A stretch of DNA of 15,367 bases from assembly GCA_039589315.1 (NCBI GenBank), contig JBDHHQ010000151.1, positions 1 to 15,367 of the forward strand, given 5' to 3'. Source of the stretch: Gemmatimonadota bacterium. Lineage in GTDB: Bacteria > Gemmatimonadota > Gemmatimonadetes > Longimicrobiales > Gaopeijiaceae. This document shows, one piece after another, positions 1 to 15,367 of this stretch. The position numbers and the translations under genes were made by a program. The notes under the pieces are model-generated. The model worked only from the letters and a program-made list of their open reading frames with translations. It was not told where the DNA came from and did no database searches. Position 1 is the stretch's first letter, and every line of letters starts with the position of its first letter.

Positions 1-325
1 CGGCGGGAGACGGAGTCGGCTACCACGATAGGGCACGGGGTCGTCAATCGCACGACTTTCGTTCGCCGGCGATTGGCGAAATGTTCAGCGGTCCGCAGAA
101 GTGTGCCGCTTCATATCGGGGTCGCTGAAAGAGGGCGTGGTTCAAACGCGATCCCGTGTGCGCCTTAGTGTGCCGATTGGTGTGCCAACCAGGCCGCACT
201 GGGGAATACGGAGAAGAACAGGCCCGAAGAGCGGGGGGTGCTAAGTGGTTGACCCACAGCATCATACACACACTAGAACCAACTTACCCTAACTCCCAGA
301 AACACCCCGAAAACTGAATGGGGTT
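1..325 (+). repeat. Inter-cassette repeat copy R1 (promoter + GTGTGCC arm-like repeats + tRNA-Pro-derived core)
   Basis: Aligns by eye with 3007-3318, 6901-7077, 10030-10357 and 13128-13447. GTGTGC(C/G) at 101, 156, 168 and 180. Core CTGAATGGGGTT at 314-325. Confidence 0.9.
25..53 (-). promoter_or_regulatory. Putative sigma70-like promoter GTGCGA-N17-TATCGT for a gene starting just left of the window
   Basis: The same motif with exact 17-nt spacing precedes all four kinase starts in the window. Bases 1-53 closely match 10030-10082, which precede the ATG at 10021. Confidence 0.6.
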
Positions 326-2978
326 GTCTTAGCTCCTCGGAGAACCCCTCTACCACGACGAGATCGCCTACCGGGCCCGACGTGGTTGCCCTCACCATAA
401 TGAAACGCTCGTCGTCGGGCATGACGTCATACATCCGATGGGCCCTCAGCGTTCGATACGGAAGTGCGGAAAACAACACGCGCTGCTCGCCATGGTCGAA
501 CGTGGGGGTTGTGCTGACTGCCACAGACACCATGTCACCATCGCCGCTTCGATAGAAGAGTTCTCGGCCGCTGTGAGCCCACACCGGTTCAGTGCCCCCA
601 GAGATCGATATGCGCGACTTTTGCGCCTGTACCTCGGGGAACGGCACGACGTACACTTCGGCTGATCCGGTCTCGGTCGAGACGTAGGCCAGCCAGTCTC
701 CTCGCGGGGAAAGGGCCGGGGAATTCTCGAGGTAGGGCGAACCTAGTAGAACCGTCGGTTCGCCGCTGGCGTCGGCAGGCAACATCAGGATGTCCCCCCC
801 ACCGGCGGTGCCTCCGTCAGTTCTGTAGACGAGTCGACTTCCGTCAGGAGACCAGACCAGCTCGGCGACACCTCGTTCGCGGTCGAGTACCAACTGCTCA
901 TCTCCCCCGCCGTCGGCCCGCCTCATCCAGACATCGATGAGCGCCAGTCGATCGGATCCGTAGGAAACCCACTGGCCATCGGGGGTCCATTCCGGTCTCA
1001 TGTTCCTGAGGCCCTCGAAGCTCAATCGAAGCGGGGAGCCTCCATCCAGCTGCTTGACCCAGACGTCACTGCCTGTTGGCCCTTGGATCGCGAAAGCGAG
1101 CCTGTCGCCACCCGGCGAGAGTGCCAGTGCGTTGAACTTCTCGGTCCATCCCGGATCGACGGCACGTGCTGAGCCATCTCTTCCAACGTACATGAGCTCG
1201 CCTTCGCTCTGGAGGGTCCCCCTTCCATACACCAGCGAGCCACCGGCGCTCGACAGGTCCATGTCCAACGAGCCGAGCTCTGCCACCATCACGCCGTCCG
1301 ACAACGCGACCGATGCGCCGGTGACTTCTAGACGATCTTCATCGAACGGCACGGCCAACAGCGTGCCTTCGGCGGAGACGTACACGAGATGACCCGTGGT
1401 GGAATACCTCACTCGGACTCCGGGTACCAGGACCTCGTAGTCGCCAGTGCCCGGATTCGCGACCGCGATCTGGTATCGGCTCACGTCCGTGGAAGGAGTA
1501 CCGAGTACGGTGAAGAGGACGCCTCGACCACCCGGGAGGGCGATGGGTGCCACGTGGCCCGTTTCCCCCGCATCTGCATCGATGCGTGTCACGGATTGCA
1601 GCGAGCCCCCACCTTCTTCCACTCGCACCAATCCCTCGTCCGAACCCACGTAGATGTGGCCGTCCGAACCCCAGGTATGGCCCAGGCGATTCAGCATACC
1701 ATTCAGTTCACCACGGAGGATCTCGACAGGGGGTTCACCGCTCAATGAAACGACCCGAAGCGCTTCAGCCGGTGTTCCCACCAGGAAGGCCACCCTCTCG
1801 CCATCCGGAGAGAAGGCCGGATTGTACCCGCCTTCCGTGCCGGCTAGGGAGGTCGGTTCCAACTCGTCCCGTTGGCGTGTCCACAGCTGATAGCCAGTGA
1901 GGGGACCGACGAACACAAAGTGCGATCCATCCGGCGAAATGGTGACACGGGAGGCGTGACGCTGAGCGAGCTGGGGAGGTTGGCCCAGGTTCAGATGGTA
2001 CCGGCTGACCATCGCGGTTCGACTGCTCTGACGCCCCAACACGGCCCAGGCGAGCGCGAACGCCGAGACAGCAGCGACGCTCGCCGCTAGAAGGGTTGAA
2101 CGATTCCTCGCCCCGCCCCGGGGTGGCCCTGCCCCATGCGCGAAGTCGGGATCGGCTAGCGCCTGTGCGAATCGCTGAGCGCTGGAAATCCGGTCCGCCG
2201 GCAATCTTTCCAGCGCCTTCTGGATCGTTGCGTCCACATTGGCCGGGACAGACGACCTGGTCTTCTTCGCGGAGACCGGGTCGCCCGTGATGATCTTGCC
2301 GAGGATCACCTGTGCCGAGCTTCCGGTGTGAGGGGGGTCGCCGACCAACATCTCGTATAGCACACAGCCGAGCGCATAGATGTCCGCTGCGGGACCTACG
2401 GTCTGCTCGCCGGTGGCCTGCTCCGGGCTCATGTAGTGGGGAGTGCCCAGACTCAGGCCGGTCTCGGTAAGTCGACTCCCTCCGGCTACCCCCACCGCCA
2501 GCGCGATGCCGAAATCAGCGACGAGTGGCTCGCCACCGCTCAACAGGATGTTGGCGGGCTTGATATCTCGATGGATGACGCCCTTGTCGTGAGCCGCGTG
2601 GAGCGCGTTCGCGACGGCCGTGGCGACCCGTACCGCCTCATCGACTGGGAGCTGCTTGTCGCGGTCCAGCCTGTCCCTCAGGCTCTCCCCCTCCACGTAG
2701 GGCATGACGTAGAAGAGGAAGCTGTCGGCTTCGCCCGAATCGAACAGCGGCAGGATGTGTGGATGCTGGAGGTTGGCTGTGGTTTCGATTTCTGCGAGGA
2801 ATCGATCCGCACCGACGACGGCAGCCAACTCAGGCTTCAGGACCTTCAACGCGACGTTGCGGTTGTGCTTGAGGTCCTTGGCGAGATAGACGGTGGCCAT
2901 CCCGCCCTCACCGAGCTGGCGCTCGATGCGGTAGCGGCCTTCCAGGGCGGCGTTGAGACGGGTGACGGGATCGGACAT
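273..2978 (-). CDS. Ser/Thr protein kinase with TM helix and TolB-like (PD40) beta-propeller repeats (kinase 1, 901 aa)
   Basis: Motifs [37 protein letters not shown]. Hydrophobic segment LLAASVAAVSAFALAWAVLG, then repeated (W/F/I)SPDG blades. Start reassigned from 3065 to ATG 2978 ([17 protein letters not shown]). The last 17 codons read into repeat R1. Confidence 0.93.
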   Translation of the reverse strand: MSDPVTRLNAALEGRYRIERQLGEGGMATVYLAKDLKHNRNVALKVLKPELAAVVGADRFLAEIETTANLQHPHILPLFDSGEADSFLFYVMPYVEGESLRDRLDRDKQLPVDEAVRVATAVANALHAAHDKGVIHRDIKPANILLSGGEPLVADFGIALAVGVAGGSRLTETGLSLGTPHYMSPEQATGEQTVGPAADIYALGCVLYEMLVGDPPHTGSSAQVILGKIITGDPVSAKKTRSSVPANVDATIQKALERLPADRISSAQRFAQALADPDFAHGAGPPRGGARNRSTLLAASVAAVSAFALAWAVLGRQSSRTAMVSRYHLNLGQPPQLAQRHASRVTISPDGSHFVFVGPLTGYQLWTRQRDELEPTSLAGTEGGYNPAFSPDGERVAFLVGTPAEALRVVSLSGEPPVEILRGELNGMLNRLGHTWGSDGHIYVGSDEGLVRVEEGGGSLQSVTRIDADAGETGHVAPIALPGGRGVLFTVLGTPSTDVSRYQIAVANPGTGDYEVLVPGVRVRYSTTGHLVYVSAEGTLLAVPFDEDRLEVTGASVALSDGVMVAELGSLDMDLSSAGGSLVYGRGTLQSEGELMYVGRDGSARAVDPGWTEKFNALALSPGGDRLAFAIQGPTGSDVWVKQLDGGSPLRLSFEGLRNMRPEWTPDGQWVSYGSDRLALIDVWMRRADGGGDEQLVLDRERGVAELVWSPDGSRLVYRTDGGTAGGGDILMLPADASGEPTVLLGSPYLENSPALSPRGDWLAYVSTETGSAEVYVVPFPEVQAQKSRISISGGTEPVWAHSGRELFYRSGDGDMVSVAVSTTPTFDHGEQRVLFSALPYRTLRAHRMYDVMPDDERFIMVRATTSGPVGDLVVVEGFSEELRQPHSVFGVFLGVRVSWF

Positions 2979-3006
2979 GCACTCCTCGGGGAACACGGGC
3001 ACCGCT

Positions 3007-3035
3007 ACGATAGGATCCCGCCGGTCAACGCGCAC
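3007..3035 (-). promoter_or_regulatory. Putative promoter GTGCGC-N17-TATCGT of kinase 1
   Basis: TATCGT on the minus strand at 3007-3012, 17-nt spacer, GTGCGC at 3030-3035. About 29 nt upstream of ATG 2978. Confidence 0.6.
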
Positions 3036-3318
3036 GGTCTCGAGTCTCTTGAGGGATCGCTTCACCGGGAACGCGTCCGAGAAGTGTGCCGCTCATGACC
3101 GGAGCCCTCCGAGACCGCAGGTTGCGTTAGGCGCTCCGGTGTGCCCGTTAGTGTGCCGCTTGGTGTGCCAACCAGGCCGCACGGGGGAAGACGCAGAAGA
3201 ACAGGCCCGAAGAGCGGGGGATGCTAAGTGGTTTACCCACAGCACCCTATGCCGCACTGGGTTCAACTCACCCGAACTCCCCGAAACACCCCGGATTCTG
3301 AATTCTGAATGGGGTTCA
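3007..3318 (+). repeat. Inter-cassette repeat copy R2
   Basis: GTGTGCC at 3084, 3139, 3151 and 3163. Core CTGAATGGGGTTCA at 3305-3318, overlapping a 7-nt tandem duplication (TTCTGAA x2). Confidence 0.9.
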
Positions 3319-3366
3319 CGCGTTGTCGCGGATTCAGTGGGTCAGTTTGGCTCAAACCGCTTCAGC

Positions 3367-6057
3367 TCACCTACCAACGCGCTGCCCGACTTCCTCCCAC
3401 CAGTTCATTGCGAGGATGAGCTGGTTGGTGTCGCCCTCTCCAACGTCGAAACGGACCATCAAGAACCGCCCGTCCGGAGCGACATCGTAGAAGGCGTAGT
3501 TGGTGATCACGTTCAGTGCTCGCTCATCAACGTTGAAAAGGGGAATCCGTTCCCCGACCTGGAGGCTGCCGCCGACTGCCTCGACTCCGACGGCAGTCAA
3601 GAAACGGTCCGCGTTGACGTAGTACAACTCGTCTCCTGAGGGCGCCCATCTGGGAGCGATACCTCCGTTCGTCGATACCTGCCACTTGCCGGCATCCACG
3701 TCAGGGAACGGCCGGACATAGATCTCGTCCTGGCCGGTCTCCGTCGATTCGTACGCCAGCCACCGGCCGTTGGGCGATAGAGCCAATGATTTCTCGTCGT
3801 ACTCTTCGGCCGCCAGTGGCACGGTCACCGAGTCCCCGACCTGTATTCCCACGATATCCCGGCCGCCGGTCACGTTGGCGGCTCCGCCCAGCCGCAACAC
3901 GAACCAAGTCTCATCTGGATTCCGTTGGACCTCGAGGATTGGCTGCTCGAGATCAAGCAGGAGCTGCGGGGTCCCCGTGCCATCAGCCATTCGCTCCCAT
4001 AGATCCCGGTTTTCGCCACGCTCCGACACGAACATGATTCGCTGGCCATCCGGTGACCATCGTGGTCGCCGGTCGAGGTCCTCGTGGAATGTCAGGCGTG
4101 AGAGTGGTCCACGGTCGAGTTGTTTGACCCAGATGTCCTCGCCGGCGTCCGAATGGACTTTCAGGGCGAGGCGAGTGCCATCGGGGGACACCGCGACGCC
4201 GATCTCGGCAGCTCCGGAGGACGACGGTGACGAGCCGTCGAACTTCCACTCCGAGTCGACGGGGTCCACCGTTCCCTCGCGTGTGACCCAAACCGCCTGG
4301 AAGAGTCCAGTCTGCGGCGGACCGGTCTTGTACAGGAGACTTCCGTCCTCCGACAAGCTGAACTGGGATTGAGATCCGCCTTTCACCTGCACGCCTGGAA
4401 TCATGGCCACAGGTGAACTCATTAGCTCGAGACGGCTTGCGTCGAACGGAGCGACCATGAGCGTCCCATCAGCGGCGGTGTAAAGGAGGTGCTCCGACGA
4501 CGAATACCTCGCCATCGCTCCGGTCACGAGATCGTGGACCTCCTTGGTCTCGAGATCGATTCCGACGATGCGACTGTTGGTCGGTGGTCCGTTTGCGAGG
4601 GTCGCGAGGATCGTCTGGCCTCCCGGTAGGCCCCGCGGCATCCGGTAGATGCCTTCTTCCGGGGGAGGAACCACCTCCTCCGGCTCACCCCCAGCAGCGA
4701 GTACGCGCAGAATGGCACCTTGGCCGGACGCGTAGTACACCCACCCATCCGATGACCATGTCGCCCCACCGAGGCCCCCTTCAGCCACCAGGCGGAACGG
4801 CGGCCCCCCAGCGAGCGAGGCGACGCTCAACCCTCCCTCTGCAAAGAAGACGATCGATTGGCCATCGGGCGAAAACGCGGGGCTCAGTCCGTTTTGTGTT
4901 CCGTTGACCGGGTGGGGCTCGATGTCATCGAGCCTGCGCTGCCATATCTGTGTACCGCCGGCGTTGGCAGGACCGACGTAGGCAAAGCTGGATCCGTCGG
5001 GGGCCAGGTCGAACTCGACCCAGGGTGTACCGGGCACCAAACCCTGCCCGGTCTGGAACACCATCGTGAAGCGGGCCGTTCGCGAGACTTCCGCGCCTCT
5101 AGAAAGGACCGAAAAGCCGAGAGCTACCGCGAGAAGAACAGCGAGTACGCCCGATCCGAGAGCGAACGGTTTCCACGAACGCGCGGCGCTTGCCGAAGCG
5201 AGCGCCGCGTCTCCGAACTGATAACGGGGGCTCGTCAATGCATCGGCGAACCCTTGAGCCGAGGCGAATCGGTCTGCGGGCAGCTTTTGCAGCGCGCATC
5301 GGAGAGCCGCGTCGACGTTCGAGGGAATCGAGGCCCGAATGGCCGTGGGCTGCCGGGCGTCCTCGGTGAGGATCTTCGCGAGGACGGCCTGGGCGCTGGG
5401 TCCTGTGTAGGGTGGCTCGCCGATCAGCATCTCGTAGAGCACGCATCCCAACGAGTAGACGTCGCTGGACGCGCTCGGCACGCGGTCCGCTGACGCTTGT
5501 TCGGGGCTCATGTAAAACGGTGTCCCCATCGACAAACCGGTCTCCGTCAGCCGGCCGCCGCCAGCCGCGCTAACGGCGAGCGCAATCCCGAAGTCCGCAA
5601 CGAGAGGTCTCCCACGTGACAAGAGGATGTTGGCCGGCTTGATGTCGCGATGGATGACGCCTTGGTCGTGAGCCGCTTGGAGTGCTTCGGCCACATCCAG
5701 TGTGATCCGAATGGCCTCGTCCACCGGCAGCTGCTGTTCTCTGCCTAACCGCTCGCGTAGGCTCTCGCCCTCGACAAATGGCATGACGTAGAAGAGGAAT
5801 CCGTCCGCCTCGCCGGAATCAAACAGCGGCAGAATGTTCGGGTGTTGCAGATTGGCGGTCGTCTTGATCTCGGCCAGGAAGCGCTCGGCGCCGACCACGG
5901 CCGCCAACTCGGGTTTCAGCACCTTGAGCGCCACTTTGCGCTCATGGCGTACGTCGTCAGCCAGGTAGACGGTCGCCATGCCCCCCTCACCGAGCTCGCG
6001 CTCGATGCGGTAGCGGCCTTCGAGGGCCGCGTTAAGCCGCGTGACGGGATGGGACAT
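3367..6057 (-). CDS. Ser/Thr protein kinase with TM helix and TolB-like beta-propeller repeats (kinase 2, 896 aa)
   Basis: Intact kinase motifs ([37 protein letters not shown]), TM FALGSGVLAVLLAVALGFSVL and SPDG repeats. Start reassigned to ATG 6057 (MSHPVTRL, RBS GGAGG). Confidence 0.93.
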   Translation of the reverse strand: MSHPVTRLNAALEGRYRIERELGEGGMATVYLADDVRHERKVALKVLKPELAAVVGAERFLAEIKTTANLQHPNILPLFDSGEADGFLFYVMPFVEGESLRERLGREQQLPVDEAIRITLDVAEALQAAHDQGVIHRDIKPANILLSRGRPLVADFGIALAVSAAGGGRLTETGLSMGTPFYMSPEQASADRVPSASSDVYSLGCVLYEMLIGEPPYTGPSAQAVLAKILTEDARQPTAIRASIPSNVDAALRCALQKLPADRFASAQGFADALTSPRYQFGDAALASASAARSWKPFALGSGVLAVLLAVALGFSVLSRGAEVSRTARFTMVFQTGQGLVPGTPWVEFDLAPDGSSFAYVGPANAGGTQIWQRRLDDIEPHPVNGTQNGLSPAFSPDGQSIVFFAEGGLSVASLAGGPPFRLVAEGGLGGATWSSDGWVYYASGQGAILRVLAAGGEPEEVVPPPEEGIYRMPRGLPGGQTILATLANGPPTNSRIVGIDLETKEVHDLVTGAMARYSSSEHLLYTAADGTLMVAPFDASRLELMSSPVAMIPGVQVKGGSQSQFSLSEDGSLLYKTGPPQTGLFQAVWVTREGTVDPVDSEWKFDGSSPSSSGAAEIGVAVSPDGTRLALKVHSDAGEDIWVKQLDRGPLSRLTFHEDLDRRPRWSPDGQRIMFVSERGENRDLWERMADGTGTPQLLLDLEQPILEVQRNPDETWFVLRLGGAANVTGGRDIVGIQVGDSVTVPLAAEEYDEKSLALSPNGRWLAYESTETGQDEIYVRPFPDVDAGKWQVSTNGGIAPRWAPSGDELYYVNADRFLTAVGVEAVGGSLQVGERIPLFNVDERALNVITNYAFYDVAPDGRFLMVRFDVGEGDTNQLILAMNWWEEVGQRVGR

Positions 6058-6628: not shown

Positions 6629-6900
6629 TCAGTTCGGCACAAGCCGCCTCAACTCCTCGAGGAAGTTCTCGACCAGGACGGTCGACCGGGTATCCGCTTG
6701 GCCCGACATCTTGGGTCGGGCCATCAGGAACCGTGTGTCGTCGAGGTCCACGTCGTAGAAGTCGGCGACGCCAGCGACACTCATCGGGTATTCGTCCGGG
6801 ACCCCGAAGAGCGTGCGCAACTCGACGCGCCTGAAGACGTCGCCGTCAGCCTCGTACTCGGCCGAAACCAACTCACGCGTGTCGGGATTCGCGAAGAACC
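6629..6900 (-). pseudogene. C-terminal remnant (~90 aa) of another kinase/beta-propeller paralog
   Basis: ...FYDVDLDDTRFLMARP...VLVENFLEELRRLVPN* matches the C-termini of kinases 1, 2 and 4 (YDV.PD..RF.M...LV.V..F.EELR). Upstream it is fused directly to truncated repeat R3. Confidence 0.85.
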
Positions 6901-7077
6901 CGCTTAGTGGGCCAACCAGGCCGCACGGGGAGAGACTGCGAATAACAGAAGCGAAGGGCGATGGTCGTAAGTGCCTGTCTTGAAGCACTCTAACCGACCT
7001 GTAGCCAACTCACCCAAACTCCCTGCAACACCCCCAATACTGAATGGGGTTCACGGGGTTGCCGGTTCGAATCCGAC
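6901..7077 (+). repeat. Inter-cassette repeat copy R3 (left-truncated at the GTGTGCC trio)
   Basis: Begins CGCTTAGTGGGCCAACCAGGCCGCAC and continues in register with the other copies to the core at 7040. Confidence 0.88.
7040..7077 (+). other. 3' fragment of tRNA-Pro(GGG) (att-like; not a functional tRNA)
   Basis: CTGA-ATGGGGT-TCA anticodon arm with GGG anticodon, GGGGT variable loop, and T-arm GCCGG-TTCGAAT-CCGAC. No D arm or acceptor stem. Confidence 0.85.
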
Positions 7078-7081
7078 AAGG

Positions 7082-8546
7082 TCACCGATCAGGCGGCGCA
7101 CGATATAGACTCGGCAGACGCGCAGCCCGGTAGACATGCCACCCGTTCGGAGCGTCGTCTTCGATGACGAGCTCGAACACCTTTTGCGGGGGCGTCGTAT
7201 GGGTTACCTCGACGATCCGCGCCGACCGACGCCCATCCGACGCGTCCGTCGCCATGCCCTGCGCGTCCGTGATTCGAGCACCATCCGTGACCAGAACGTT
7301 CCCGGTTAGAGGCAGCCAGTCCGTATCGCTGATGAACGACGAGTAGAAGTGGTCGCCCTCCTGGTCCCCATACGACCAGACCTGGCTGACCCCCATGGTC
7401 GACTCGTCCACGGCATATTCCACGGCTCGACTGTATGGCTCCGAGATTGGTGGGCCGTCTTCGATGGGTCCGCCGCGATTGGTCCCGTTGTCGAAAAGCA
7501 GGATTGTGCCGTGCGGGGACACCTTGGCGGCGTGTTGATGGTTGGGCCAAACGAGCTCCCCACTCGGCGCCAGGAGGTAGGGGGCCCAAGCCTCGGTCCA
7601 ACCTGTGTGGTCACCGAGAATCCACGCCAGCTGACCGGTCGCGAGGTCCACCTTCACCACGGCATCCTGGCGACGTGCTGAAACGATGACCGACTCATCA
7701 CGCTCGTCGTAAAAGGCGGCATTGACGTGCGACCAGTCGACCAACCGACCCTCGTACATCCCTTCGTACGAGGATTCCCAAAAGCCCCCCCAACCGTTGG
7801 GCTGGAAGCCGTCCGAAACGGATCCAGCACGTCGAGCAACCTGACTTCCCGCAGAACGGCTCCATCCCTGTTGAATTCGACCAGTACGTCGCCCACCACG
7901 GTCGCGCTTTCAGTCGGAGCCTCCGGATCGATTGAGCTGGTAGGATAGTCGTCGTAGGTCCGTAGCTCGCTGCTTACCGTCATCAGGGTCCCCGAGGGCA
8001 ACTCAACTCCGCGATCTCGTGGTGAAGAGTGTCGGTGTCTACGGGCGTGCTTTCCTGGGACGTCTCCTTTGGAGTGCCTGTCGCGTGCCAACGCTCCACG
8101 ACGTTGCCGAGCATGTCGATCTCCGTCGCTAGGCCGTTTCGCCCGGACGCGTAGAGCAGGTTGCCGTTCGCGAGCTGGATCACATCGCCGATGCCGTGAT
8201 CGGCGCGATAGTACCAAACGATCTCACCCTGGCTGTCGACAGCGAGCATGGCTGCAAACCCACTACCTCCGCCCTCGCCACACTTCATCAAGTTGAAAAG
8301 AGTGACGCCGGGTTCCATCTCTCCAGATAGGACCTTTGTAGCGACCAGCCTGGGAAAGTCGTCCGGCAATGGCTCCGTCCGGAACTCGATGGGATCTGAC
8401 GCAGTCTCGTTGCCCGCGGCATCGGTCAACATGACGGAGATCCGGTGATCGGTGTCAGACCGAAGCCCGAGAACGGGCACATCCAGCTCCGCAGCGAGTT
8501 CCGTACTCACGACGGAGCTCCATTGGTCGCGACCGTCGTCGGTCAC
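7082..8546 (-). pseudogene. Arylsulfotransferase (ASST)-family pseudogene, 5'-truncated with two frameshifts
   Basis: Three consecutive frames give an N-terminal VPVLGLR Ig-like segment, HHE, DWSHVNA, SARRQD, QHAA, FDNG, YSRAVEY and YRAAR. Frameshifts occur at a 5-nt duplication (~7999-8009) and near a C7 run (7785-7791). The 5' end is cut at the IS110 end. Confidence 0.85.
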
Positions 8547-9015
8547 TGATATGAAAGGGCTGGGGTCAAGAGGCTGGAGAACCCGGGGACAGCTTCGACG
8601 ATGATCCTACTGATACTCGCCGGTTACGCGGTGGACCGCGCAGAGCGGGATTAAGATTCGTCTGGAGCCAGCCGGACTCTAGCATCGGGGATCCGGCCCC
8701 GAGTGGGGGCCTGCCGCATAGCGACGCCGGGCGTTCTCCTATCGTGCCCCGGGTCCACCAAGCCTCAGGAGTCTGACGTTGGCGCGATGATGGGTCAGGC
8801 GGCCTCGTCGAGTCGAAGGTTGTCGGTAGCGGGCTCCTGCATGACGGCCCAGAGGAAGCCGACGAGCTCACGGGCGGCGGCGACCACGGCGATGCGAGAG
8901 GACTTCCTGGCGGCGATCCTGTGATAGAGCTTGTGCAGGCGATGCTGGGCCTTCCAGGCGTGGGCCACGACATGGGGCGGCGCACCGTGTTGTCGTCGCT
9001 TTCGCTGAGGGTGCC
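8546..9015 (-). mobile_element. IS110-family remnant: transposase C-terminus plus ~250-bp right non-coding end
   Basis: 8795-~9010 encodes RRQHGAPPHVVAHAWKAQHRLHKLYHRIAARKSSRIAVVAAARELVGFLWAVM, the typical IS110/IS116/IS902 transposase tail. The downstream end finishes ...CTTGACCCCAGCCCTTTCATATCAG exactly where the ASST gene is truncated. The boundary with kinase 3 (~9015) is approximate. Confidence 0.8.
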
Positions 9016-10021
9016 GCGCGCGGGACCGGTTGTGTCGAGCGTGCCACGGCATACCCGCCGGCCAACAAGGCGCCGCCGAGCACTGCGGTGAGCCAGACGG
9101 GGACGCCGCGGCCCGGCCTCGAGGCGGCTACGGGCGTCGGAGCGGCGGCTGGCGCTGCGGCGGAGCGCGGCGCTGCGGCGTACGTAAACGCCTCGTCCTC
9201 GAGCGCATCCATGAACGTCTTCGCGCTCTCGAAGCGGTCGGCCGGTAGCTTTTCGATGGCCTTCGCGACCGCGGCGGCGACGTGACGCGGTACGGTGTGC
9301 CGGAGCTCGGTGAGCGGCCGCGGGCTCTCGGTCAGGATGCGCACGAGGATAGACTGAGCGCTGGGGCCCGTGTGCGGCGGCTGCCCGGCGATCATCTCGT
9401 AGAGAACGCATCCCAGGCTGTAGACGTCCGACCGTGCGCTCAGGTCGCGGTCCGCGCTGGCCTGTTCTGGGCTCATGTAGTGCGGCGTGCCTAGTGACAG
9501 GCCCGTCTCGGTCATGCGCCCGCCCCCCGCGGCGCTGATCGCGAGCGCGATGCCGAAGTCGGCCCCGACGGGTCGGCCGTCGTGGAGCAGCACGTTGCTG
9601 GGCTTGATGTCGCGGTGGATCACCCCTTGCCGGTGCGCGTAGTCGAGTGCATCGGCCACGTCACGGGCAATCCGGACGGCTTCGGAAACGCCGAGCTGCT
9701 TCTCGTGGTCCAGCTTCTCCCTCAGCGTCTCGCCGTCGATGAACGGCATCACGTAGTAGAGGAAGCCGTCAGCCTCACCCGAGTCGAACAGCGCGAGGAT
9801 GTGGGGATGCTGGAGGTTCGCGTCCTCTTGATCTCGGCCAGGAAGCGCTCAGCCCCGATTACGGCAGCGAGCTCCGGGCGGAGAATCTTGAGAGCGACGT
9901 TCCGCTCATGCTTCAGATCCTCGGCCAGATAGACCGTGGCCATGCCGCCTTCGCCGAGCTCGCGCTCGATTCGGTAGCGGCCTTCGAGGGCGGCGTTCAG
10001 ACGGGTGACGGGATCGGACAT
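9016..10021 (-). pseudogene. Ser/Thr kinase paralog 3, frameshifted and truncated after the TM helix
   Basis: [16 protein letters not shown] start. A 1-nt deletion at ~9822 (AAG AGG AC GCG AAC instead of K-T-T-A-N) shifts the frame. The second frame has HRDIKPSNVLL, DFG, YMSPEQ and TM VWLTAVLGGALLAGGYAV, then joins the IS110 remnant. The propeller is absent. Confidence 0.88.
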
Positions 10022-10029
10022 TGGTACCT

Positions 10030-10357
10030 CGGCGGGAGACTGGGTCGGCTACCACGATAGGGCACCGGCTCGTCAATCGCACTACGGTCGTTCGCCAGCG
10101 ATTGGCGAAAGATGCTCAGCGGTCCGCAGAAGTGTGCCGCTTCACATGGGGTCGCTGAAAAAAGGCGTGGTTCCAACGCGATCCGGTGTGCGTTTAGTGT
10201 GCCGCTTGGTGTGCCAACTGGTCCACACTGGGGAAAACACAGAAGAACTTGAGCGAAGAGCGATGGCCGTAAGCGCTTATCCTGAAGTACTCTAACCGAC
10301 CTGTAACCAACTCACTCCAACTCCCCGAAACACCCCGAATACTGAATGGGGTTCAGG
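10030..10357 (+). repeat. Inter-cassette repeat copy R4
   Basis: GTGTGC(C/G) at 10132, 10186, 10197 and 10209. Core CTGAATGGGGTTCAGG at 10342-10357. Confidence 0.9.
10054..10082 (-). promoter_or_regulatory. Putative promoter GTGCGA-N17-TATCGT of kinase 3
   Basis: Conserved motif with 17-nt spacer, about 33 nt upstream of ATG 10021. Confidence 0.6.
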
Positions 10358-10410
10358 CCTTGTCGGGGATTCAGTGGGTCAGAGACTACGAGCAACCGCT
10401 CTCCGCTCGG

Positions 10411-13095: not shown

Positions 13096-13127
13096 CGGTG
13101 TCTCGGCGAGAGAAGCAAATCGCTCTC

Positions 13128-13156
13128 ACGATAGGACACCGGCTCGTCAATCGCAC
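13128..13156 (-). promoter_or_regulatory. Putative promoter GTGCGA-N17-TATCGT of kinase 4
   Basis: Conserved motif with 17-nt spacer, about 33 nt upstream of ATG 13095. Confidence 0.6.
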
Positions 13157-13416
13157 GACATTCGTTCGCGAGCGATTGGCTAGGTGTTCAGACGTTCGCA
13201 GAAGTGTGCCGCGGCACCTTGGGGTCGCCGGATGAGCGCATGGCCGCAGGGCGACTCGGCGTGCGGACTAGTGTGCCGCTTGGTGTGCCAACTGGGCCGA
13301 ACCGGAAGAAACTCAGAAGAACGGGAGCGAAGAGCCGTAGGTGCTAACCCCTTTTCCTACAGCACTCTAGCTAACCTCAGGCCAACTCAGCGGCACTCCC
13401 CGAAACACCCCGAATA

Positions 13417-13447
13417 CTGAATGGGGTTCAGGGGGTCGCCGGTTCGA
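13417..13447 (+). other. 3' fragment of tRNA-Pro(GGG) (att-like; not a functional tRNA)
   Basis: CTGAATGGGGTTCAGGGGGTCGCCGGTTCGA: anticodon arm (GGG), variable loop and 5' half of the T arm with GTTCGA. Confidence 0.85.
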
Positions 13448-13477
13448 GCCGAGCGGCCACTTGGGTGCAGCGTGAAG

Positions 13478-13558: not shown

Positions 13559-14047
13559 CTATCGCCAGATCCACCGCACCCAGTTGCCGTGGACCCAGCC
13601 AGACCTGCAGGGCCCCCGGTACGACTCCGGGTCCGCCAACTGCTCGGCGCCCGCGTAACACTCCGCCGCTTCCTGACCCTCTTGGGGGTAGACGACACCG
13701 TGCCAGCCGTTCTCGTAGTCGCACAGAATCACGAGGTCGCCATTGTGAAGCTCGTCAATCTGCTCGTGGTCGGTGCCAGGTCCCGTGCGCACCGCAAGGA
13801 ACCCGTCGCCCTGGGGGTCGAGTCCCTGGATCTCGCCCCGAGACGGACAAGGATCCATGGTCGGCTGGCTGACGTGCGCAACGGTCATGCGGTCCGCGTC
13901 CTGGGCGTGCACCTGCTGCGGCAGGAGCGGCAGGAGCAGCAGAACGGCGGTTCCGACCAGCGCCGACGTTGTTACCCCACCGGGGCGTCGGTGGCGACGC
14001 CACGCTTCGGGGTTGTTTGCGTTCGAATCGAAAGGCCGTGTAGGCAT
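13559..14047 (-). CDS. Secreted bacterial SH3-like domain protein
   Basis: RBS GGAGGA and signal-peptide-like ALVGTAVLLLLPLLPQQVHA|Q. SH3_3-like GFLAVRTGPG...IDELHNGD...GWHGVVY...SGWVH, with four Cys. Confidence 0.8.
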   Translation of the reverse strand: MPTRPFDSNANNPEAWRRHRRPGGVTTSALVGTAVLLLLPLLPQQVHAQDADRMTVAHVSQPTMDPCPSRGEIQGLDPQGDGFLAVRTGPGTDHEQIDELHNGDLVILCDYENGWHGVVYPQEGQEAAECYAGAEQLADPESYRGPCRSGWVHGNWVRWIWR

Positions 14048-14144: not shown

Positions 14145-15367
14145 CTACCGATTCGCGTCGTCCACTCGCCGCTTCATGTCCTCCACGAAGCCCGGGATGA
14201 CCCGGACATAGTAGCCGAGGCTCTCGGTCGGCGAGCGCTTGTAGACGACGTCGCCGTCCGGCATGATCTCGAACGACTGGCCGGGGGTGTCCGCGAAGTG
14301 GGCGTCCGAGACGATCGATTCAGGGCCCTCGAACGGAGGATCCCGGGCGGGATCGATCGTTACCGAGTAGAGTCCGGCGCCGCTGGACACGGTGGCCGTG
14401 TCGCTCAGGAATGCCCAGTAGACCAGCTCCGTAGAAGACGCCCATTGCGGATCTTGCCCGCTCGGATCGATCAGATAGCGACGATCCAGGTCGGGCCAGG
14501 GCTGAAGCTGAATGCCGGGGGTCGACTGGTTCTGATAGGCGATCCAGCGACGGTCTGGGGAGATCTCTACAAAGAATGCATCGACACCGATCGGCTCCAC
14601 CGTCGGAGGACTCGAGGTCAGGTCGATCATCTCGGCTGATCCCGAGCCCGAAGTCTGTCCAACGAGCAGAGAATCGTCGGCCAGGTAGGTCGTCGGAACC
14701 ATGTACAGGTACGGGTCACCCGAAAGAAGGTCCTTCGAGCCGGCGTTGGAGTCGATCTCCAGAGACGCAATCGCGTCGCTCTCCGGAGTCGGGAACCTCG
14801 CAAAGACGACGTGCCGCCCGTCCGGGCTCCACACCGGCGTCCCCACGTAGTTGGCACGCTCCAGAGTCTGAAAAGCCCCCGTTCGGAGGTCGTAGATGCA
14901 CAGCTCCTGCTCCGGAGGCCGTCGATGACCGACGCGAACGAACGGCCATCGGGGCTCACGGTGAACCGCAGGTGGATGGCCGTCACCGTCCGACCCGGCG
15001 CCATACCGGAACGCGGGGTCGCCGAGCGCTCGAGCGAGCTCGTCGGCGGTCGCAAACCGATCCGCCGGCAGACTCTGGAGTGCTCTTCGGATCGCTCCAT
15101 CGACATTCGCCGGCACGGACGGTCGATGCTCGGCCGGAGCCACGGGGTCGCCGGAGAGGATCTTGCCCAGCACCGCCTGGGCGGTGCTGCCCGTATACGG
15201 CGGATCGCCCACGAGCATCTCGTAGAGCACGCAGCCCACTGCGTAGATGTCGCTGGCCGGACCGACGTGTTGATCGCCGGTGGCCTGCTCCGGGCTCATG
15301 TAGTACGGCGTACCGACGCTGAGCCCGGTTTCCGTCAGTCGCGCGCCCCCGGCAGCACCGACCGCCA
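14145..15367 (-). CDS. Ser/Thr kinase paralog 5 (5' end outside window), internally deleted (no TM or first propeller); possibly a pseudogene
   Basis: RLTETGLSVGTPYYMSPEQ...LPADRF, then after about 45 aa WSPDG/ISPD propeller repeats and C-terminus VRVIPGFVEDMKRRV. No hydrophobic helix between the two parts. Confidence 0.8.
   Translation of the reverse strand, partial: AVGAAGGARLTETGLSVGTPYYMSPEQATGDQHVGPASDIYAVGCVLYEMLVGDPPYTGSTAQAVLGKILSGDPVAPAEHRPSVPANVDGAIRRALQSLPADRFATADELARALGDPAFRYGAGSDGDGHPPAVHREPRWPFVRVGHRRPPEQELCIYDLRTGAFQTLERANYVGTPVWSPDGRHVVFARFPTPESDAIASLEIDSNAGSKDLLSGDPYLYMVPTTYLADDSLLVGQTSGSGSAEMIDLTSSPPTVEPIGVDAFFVEISPDRRWIAYQNQSTPGIQLQPWPDLDRRYLIDPSGQDPQWASSTELVYWAFLSDTATVSSGAGLYSVTIDPARDPPFEGPESIVSDAHFADTPGQSFEIMPDGDVVYKRSPTESLGYYVRVIPGFVEDMKRRVDDANR

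Follow-up and report, generated by a model that had tools for sequence, protein, structure and literature searches.

An integrase-free array of kinase genes separated by putative tRNA-Pro(GGG)-derived att sites in a Gemmatimonadota bacterium

In the stretch of DNA analysed here (the window: the 15,367 nucleotides of contig JBDHHQ010000151.1, or C151, from the 6.67-Mb draft genome G000, 67% GC), Ser/Thr kinase genes with PD40 beta-propellers lie on the minus strand, with five repeats of ~330 bp (R1-R5) in between (Table 1). The best reading of these repeats is that they are attR-type half-sites, each composed of an arm and a core, of a tyrosine integrase whose cleavage site is the anticodon loop of tRNA-Pro(GGG). 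The array is a real feature, and the explanation towards which we lean is that of an integrase-free, att-linked kinase array, produced by tandem accretion with an integrase acting in trans, decay of the edges, reuse of a linker and swapping of kinase bodies by homologous recombination. An assembly artefact is unlikely, given the divergence of 15-30% between copies of the repeat and the contigs from two other runs, X2 and X4, that span the R4 junction from the core through the flank into the kinase end and show the consensus bases in the flank. Coverage in X2, X4 and X10 extends over the R4-R5 unit and hardly over its neighbours, but that unit was also used to select the runs, and the pattern therefore carries no evidential weight.

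Table 1. Coordinates of the features in the window (position 1 is its first nucleotide)
Feature	Position	Strand	Details
R1	1..325	+	kinase promoter region; arm-type sites 101-107, 156-162, 168-174, 180-186; core 314-325; right side joined to kinase C-terminal codons, probably a class-2 site minus ~45 bp, presumably by deletion
Ser/Thr kinase with PD40 beta-propeller	273..2978	-	stop deleted, so that the frame continues through R1
R2	2984..3343	+	promoter region; arm sites 3084, 3139, 3151, 3163; core 3305; class-2 flank 3319-3343
Ser/Thr kinase with beta-propeller	3367..6057	-	3' end adjoins R2 flank; nearest paralogue is the dispersed C157:6561
C-terminal remnant of another kinase	6629..6895	-	fused to truncated R3 arm
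R3	6900..7075	+	arm truncated; core 7040; 7-bp overlap 7044-7050; tRNA 3' remnant 34/36 nt; class 1
Arylsulfotransferase-like gene, fragmented	7082..8546	-	non-kinase cargo behind class-1 site
IS110-family transposase remnant	8795..9052	-	weak match, E 5e-4
Kinase gene, frameshifted and truncated	9186..10021	-	
R4	10030..10380	+	promoter region; arm sites 10132, 10186, 10197, 10209; core 10342; class-2 flank 10356-10380
Ser/Thr kinase with beta-propeller, intact, 894 aa	10411..13095	-	between R4 and R5
R5	13104..13447	+	promoter region; arm sites 13204, 13271, 13283; core 13417; class 1; tRNA part of 31 nt, reaching T-loop
Left end of ~87-bp T-loop-inserted repeat	13448..13458	+	remainder deleted
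SH3_3-domain protein	13559..14047	-	weak match; cargo behind class-1 site
Partial kinase gene	14145..15365	-	runs off contig end

The five cores of the window share the 12-mer CTGAATGGGGTT. Under an order-3 Markov model, ~0.0003 copies would be expected by chance in the window, where five were found, and 0.15 in the genome, where ten are exact. The host tRNA-Pro(GGG) gene lies at G000:C68:21809-21883, and in it the 7-nt loop ATGGGGT stands between CTGA and TCAG; the displaced fragments start at nt 29 of the tRNA, and this anticodon loop is the segment in common. A fixed left edge is expected from a crossover point in the anticodon loop, and it is what anticodon-loop integrases have been described to leave (Islander, PMC4383910, in the parts of that report used here). 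An earlier note made from the sequence of the window had proposed a tRNA-Pro(GGG) origin, a tyrosine-recombinase core and a common left start of the tRNA identity, and these proposals are supported; the host gene contains the note's test sequence. Exact tRNA identity extends over 12 nt in R1, 14 in R2, 16 in R4 and 31 in R5, as had been counted, but R3 matches at 34 of 36 nt (7040-7075) instead of 38. It was also correct that no copy in the window reaches the acceptor stem, but the missing CCA is uninformative, since the host gene does not encode CCA.

In total, G000 contains 17 such cores on five contigs (five on C151, eight on C42, two on C210 and one each on C124 and C156), with one orientation per contig. 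The intact tRNA and the array are on separate contigs, so their adjacency in G000 is putative. In other genomes, the core follows the intact tRNA and is oriented like it, in G205 with this arm class and in G010 in one of two copies. In the complete genome G010, tRNA-Pro cores with arms are also found in the opposite orientation, 350-460 kb from the tRNA (C1, 3147789 and 3960740), and at least three arm classes occur on the same core; several arm classes lie downstream of one tRNA.

On their left side, the repeats carry GTGTGCC at about -115 from the kinase start, plus a tandem set at -170/-182/-194; the arm type tied to tRNA-Pro(GGG) sites is TTGTGTGCC. In an alignment of the ten intact arms of G000, from which two truncated arms and five arm-less cores were left out, all 14 arm-motif columns show no variation, and 37 of 114 spacer columns are likewise constant. 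Of 279 family genomes, 10 have a tRNA-Pro end followed after 50-80 nt by GTGTGCC, at 12 places in all (1 and 2 for the controls). Seven of these places were inspected in sequence, one proving unrelated, and the other five were judged unrelated by the matched text alone. The six remaining places, found in five genomes, are genuine tRNA 3' ends with two copies of GTGTGCC at 12-bp spacing behind them, that is, attL-type ends, and in none does an integrase come straight after the arm. One island of G205 has an intact tRNA with this arm at one end and, 12 kb away, a matching arm and core at the other. In the viral contig L235, the same GTGTGCC doublet lies between an integrase and a tRNA-Pro core. 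The same arm type also stands in front of a tRNA-Lys core in G294 and G222.

The right side of the repeats is of two classes. Among the 17 cores of G000, six (R3, R5 and four others) have tRNA-type remnants, with tRNA 3' ends in decay (class 1), ten have a conserved non-tRNA flank (class 2), and R1, whose core is joined directly to the kinase codons EELRQ, is probably a class-2 site with a short deletion. The sole complete tRNA 3' end (46 nt) is found mid-array, at C42:47955, and the earlier note's view that units without the full 3' end could not restore the tRNA is supported for most units. This truncation is not general in G000, since of its five displaced tRNA-Val(TAC) fragments four have 44-46 nt and the other 41 nt. 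The class-2 flank, with consensus TCACGCGTTGTCGGGGATTCAGTGGGTC (nine copies strict and one loose), reads in sequence as an insert of 15-18 nt at the right border of the overlap, followed by ~11 nt of tRNA. A kinase 3' end lies behind nine of the ten class-2 sites, 34-139 nt from the core, and C42:41350 is the site without one.

The 25-nt flank has a mean identity of 88% among eight ungapped copies. When it was compared in five copies with the linked spacer, 18 of 21 columns were invariant in the flank and 61 of 113 in the spacer (Fisher p 0.005, an optimistic value, because the boundaries of the flank were set by its own conservation), and across genera the values are 0.80 and 0.62, respectively. 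The flank also occurs in two other genera; its matches elsewhere comprise seven sites in G296 and one in G294, with mixed genes behind them, and two metagenome contigs, while G145 has one looser class-2-like flank on a different arm. A match in G046 was dropped because both core and arm are absent. The exact flank pattern is rare, as it was found in 4 of 401 genomes of the order, including G000 and one spurious match. Exact G000-specific strings had zero matches in genome or metagenome contigs, so that looser patterns were required, and the class-2 22-mer of G000 was found in none of 200 family genomes. Additionally, G145 contains a gene-less, microCIME-like element of ~230 bp between a tRNA 3' end and a class-2-like core (L197:1700-2200, G145:C11:1226750-1227200), preceded by two nested T-loop insertions.

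These two classes bear on the earlier note's description of a ragged right edge, which does not hold, as the flank of R2 and R4 is common to 7-8 other copies in the genome and R5 stops at a T-loop insertion. Trimming after insertion, one of the two origins suggested there, fits the six tRNA-remnant copies and R1 but not the ten copies with a fixed flank; the other, insertion into secondary sites, would suit those ten, if internal reuse by recombination is accepted, but not the rest. That description recognised neither the split into two classes nor the arm-type sites, and it lacked the T-loop insertion at R5 and the complete C42 copy.

The T-loop insertion is a non-coding repeat of ~87 bp, starting GCCGAGCGGCC, that interrupts tRNA and tmRNA fragments in their T-loop (TTCGA^ATCC). 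It is inserted precisely, without target duplication, and has a covarying 4-bp stem close to its right end. In G000, 16 copies were collected, mostly in T-loop context (on C27, C42, C68, C127, C142, C159, C176, C184 and C191, plus the window), and it was found in 9 of 61 genomes, in tandem at 142-151 bp in G001 and G032. The tRNA stretch of R5 stops exactly at its left end, and the right edge of R5 is cut by the repeat. It has no Rfam match, no transposase was found for it, and the literature searched, with incomplete coverage, holds no description of it in this phylum.

Displaced fragments of other tRNAs, in more than one copy, also occur in G000. They derive from tRNA-Ser(TGA), Lys(TTT), Ala(TGC) and Ile(GAT) and are found on C27, C142, C184, C72, C118, C11 and C93, so there are several tRNA hotspots in one genome. 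Beside tRNA-Pro(GGG), 18 tRNA calls are clustered at C68:16206-18887, and similar clusters exist in G032 and G205. At C68:16400-16770, just upstream of the intact gene, lies a full-length copy of tRNA-Pro(CGG), with a changed anticodon and a T-loop insertion, which ARAGORN miscalls as tRNA-Ser(CGA). In the window itself, neither ARAGORN nor Rfam found any RNA gene.

The kinases between the repeats did not arise as local copies of one another. In a 33-row tree, the arm-linked kinases require 8 changes, against 8.1 with shuffled labels, and a single clade for the ten kinases of C151 and C42 is rejected (AU p 1e-48; 27 rows, after removal of the first 30 residues and of six divergent rows, with the frameshifted array kinases left out). 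The tree and the AU test rule out in-place tandem duplication of one kinase. By contrast, over codons 1-25 the DNA identity is 0.86 among eight array kinases and 0.73 to dispersed paralogues, and third positions are identical at 0.77 among the eight and 0.57 to others. Past codon 25, the identity of the array kinases is at background, with four-fold sites 0.38 identical; the arms have a mean identity of 0.74. Consequently, the shared unit is a linker running from the flank to codon ~25, between copies of which the bodies would have been swapped. By these comparisons, the linker common to the array comprises the flank, the core, the arm, a putative promoter and the first ~25 codons, and the kinase bodies are not one clade. 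The putative promoter was recognised by eye, and a scan for promoters gave no site. The C-terminal motif beside the flank is also present in dispersed paralogues. Many units are damaged, with frameshifts and truncated arms. Relatives have at most 35 matches to this kinase family per genome, and nothing on how the family spreads appears in the literature searched.

As for the integrase, G000 has ten PF00589 matches, and there is no tyrosine recombinase on C151, C42, C124, C210 or C156, the scanned ORFs of the window being kinases and cargo. The cognate integrase of the array sites was not found among the candidates examined, which came from C68 and G205. The integrase that neighbours the tRNA on C68 has arms of another motif, TGTGAG, which its G004 homologue shares, and it is probably not cognate. 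The multicopy recombinase inside the G205 island was discarded because none of 30 homologue loci has a tRNA, arm or core nearby; it belongs to a family of 387-aa tyrosine recombinases (L155-L184) that has several copies in many of the family genomes (86 of 301 have a match) and is possibly IS-like. The TGTGCC pairs next to other integrases of G205 are parts of different sites, tRNA-Cys and tRNA-Lys among them. No P' arm, the partner arm, was found within 450 bp of any of the 17 cores, so lambda-type excision of single class-2 units is not expected. In four public runs, no joint at a core was seen among 15 inspected of 186 joints, and no excision was seen. Kinases do occur in G000 as minimal integrase-free islets, as is evident at tRNA-Val(TAC), where a complete islet carrying kinase cargo only, with its two arms and complete tRNA ends, stands in tandem with an integrase (C119:1496-5932, partly covered by L275; the genome has five Val fragments).

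Several known systems resemble the array in part. A-subsite tRNA islands share with it the displaced 3' tRNA fragment from the anticodon loop and, presumably, tandem arrays at one tRNA; according to the parts of the Islander report used here, such islands have an integrase and a nearly complete fragment, the 'damage' meant is a small deletion close to the discriminator, and only 4 tandems with at least three members are listed for the 3919 islands (PMC4383910). Here, the anticodon-loop fragment and the host tRNA are present, but the 17 cores are without an integrase and mostly have a fixed non-tRNA flank, only one retaining a full 3' end. Streptococcal CIMEs and microCIMEs are similar in their integrase-free cargo, their tandem accretion at a target gene and their chimeric internal att sites, but CIMEs retain attL and attR, and the composites listed in the consulted sections have at most three elements (PMC7563491). 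The array matches CIMEs in the apparent absence of recombination and transfer genes, as its contigs have no tyrosine recombinase and the ORFs scanned in the window are kinases and cargo, but its class-2 units have neither P' arm nor tRNA end, and they use one linker for one gene family; an attL and attR pair was found only in the tRNA-Val islet. In Prochlorococcus, tycheposon islands also scatter partial tRNAs by serial integration, but these elements carry integrase and replication modules, and the portions of that preprint used here describe no conserved derived linker (bioRxiv 10.1101/2020.12.28.424599).

In integron cassette arrays and pdif modules, genes have the same orientation, stop codons abut the recombination site and the recombinase is encoded elsewhere. 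The array differs from them in its tRNA-derived site with integrase arm sites, its putative promoter in each unit and its lack of an attC-like hairpin, as no consistent significant fold was found, nor any Rfam match in the window. No integron integrase with attI is present beside the array on its contigs; recombinases that look integron-like by eye, on C97 and C248, are unlinked to it. By analogy, the array may work like CIME accretion and the partial-tRNA trails of Prochlorococcus, and it falls outside canonical islands, for want of an integrase and of a complete fragment, outside CIMEs, as the attL arm is missing, and outside integrons, as there is nothing like an attC fold. The literature searched, with incomplete coverage, contains no description of an array of this type.

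In the explanation that we favour, an integrase acting in trans would have added integrase-free islets in tandem at the hotspot, and the tRNA-type right edges would have decayed through deletion and T-loop insertion. One derived class-2 site would then have become a reusable linker, selected for integrase binding and serving as an internal target, while different kinase bodies would have been placed between linkers through homologous recombination, with the conserved N-lobe and the C-terminal motif as the regions of exchange. As class-2 units are unable to restore the tRNA, they could move only between internal sites or as passengers.

It may be argued that the integrase has been idle since one damaged att junction arose, a single time, between two kinase genes, and that this dead scar has since spread solely through the kinase ends, by gene conversion or homologous recombination. 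We regard this as rather unlikely, although the drop to background identity past codon ~25, the occurrence in dispersed paralogues of the C-terminal motif beside the flank and the failure to find a P' arm, a cognate integrase or an excision joint all speak for it. What it leaves unexplained is the presence of invariant arm motifs within a 72%-identical spacer, the excess conservation of the flank and the similar flank on a different arm in G145, unless the arm motifs have a regulatory role on the kinase promoter, which could rescue it. We consider it improbable that the whole array reflects ordinary serial accretion and decay, with every repeat left as a scar by a separate island that lost its integrase end through a deletion reaching as far as the nearest useful gene. 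This is a pattern known from Prochlorococcus islands (bioRxiv 10.1101/2020.12.28.424599) and streptococcal CIMEs (PMC7563491), to judge by the parts of both reports used here, and it would suit the six class-1 copies, R1 and the complete genome G010, with several arm classes downstream of the same tRNA. However, independent deletions could not yield the same 25-nt non-tRNA flank ten times, which contradicts it for class 2, nor does it account for unrelated kinases that have their first 25 codons in common.

A role in RNA, with the class-2 flank kept as a terminator or stabilising hairpin of the kinase mRNA and not for recombination, seems very improbable to us. The short distance of the flank from the kinase stops and a CCCCGA/TCGGGG inverted repeat across the core would be compatible with it, but a terminator is called at none of the repeats, and the folding z-scores of 21 junctions lie between +0.9 and -2.8, a single one being under -2, and reveal no shared structure. 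The arm motifs would also remain without an explanation.

Returning to the trans-integrase array, a further step is possible but doubtful, namely that the class-2 site, whose activity is putative, is a working, tRNA-independent recombination site. The array would then be an integron-like kinase cassette system derived from the att site of a tRNA integrase, in which an integrase in trans adds, removes or reorders promoter-bearing cassettes and homologous recombination loads new sensor domains. Island finders that demand an integrase and a full fragment filter out integrase-free arrays such as this one. The array suggests a route for spread, in which tRNA-integration scars are recycled as a standard linker that gives a promoter and a gene start to unrelated kinases. 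If the class-2 site is active, this would be a cassette system with an origin other than that of integrons, and, if the cassette reading is true, several genera of Gemmatimonadota would have a signalling repertoire that can be shuffled.
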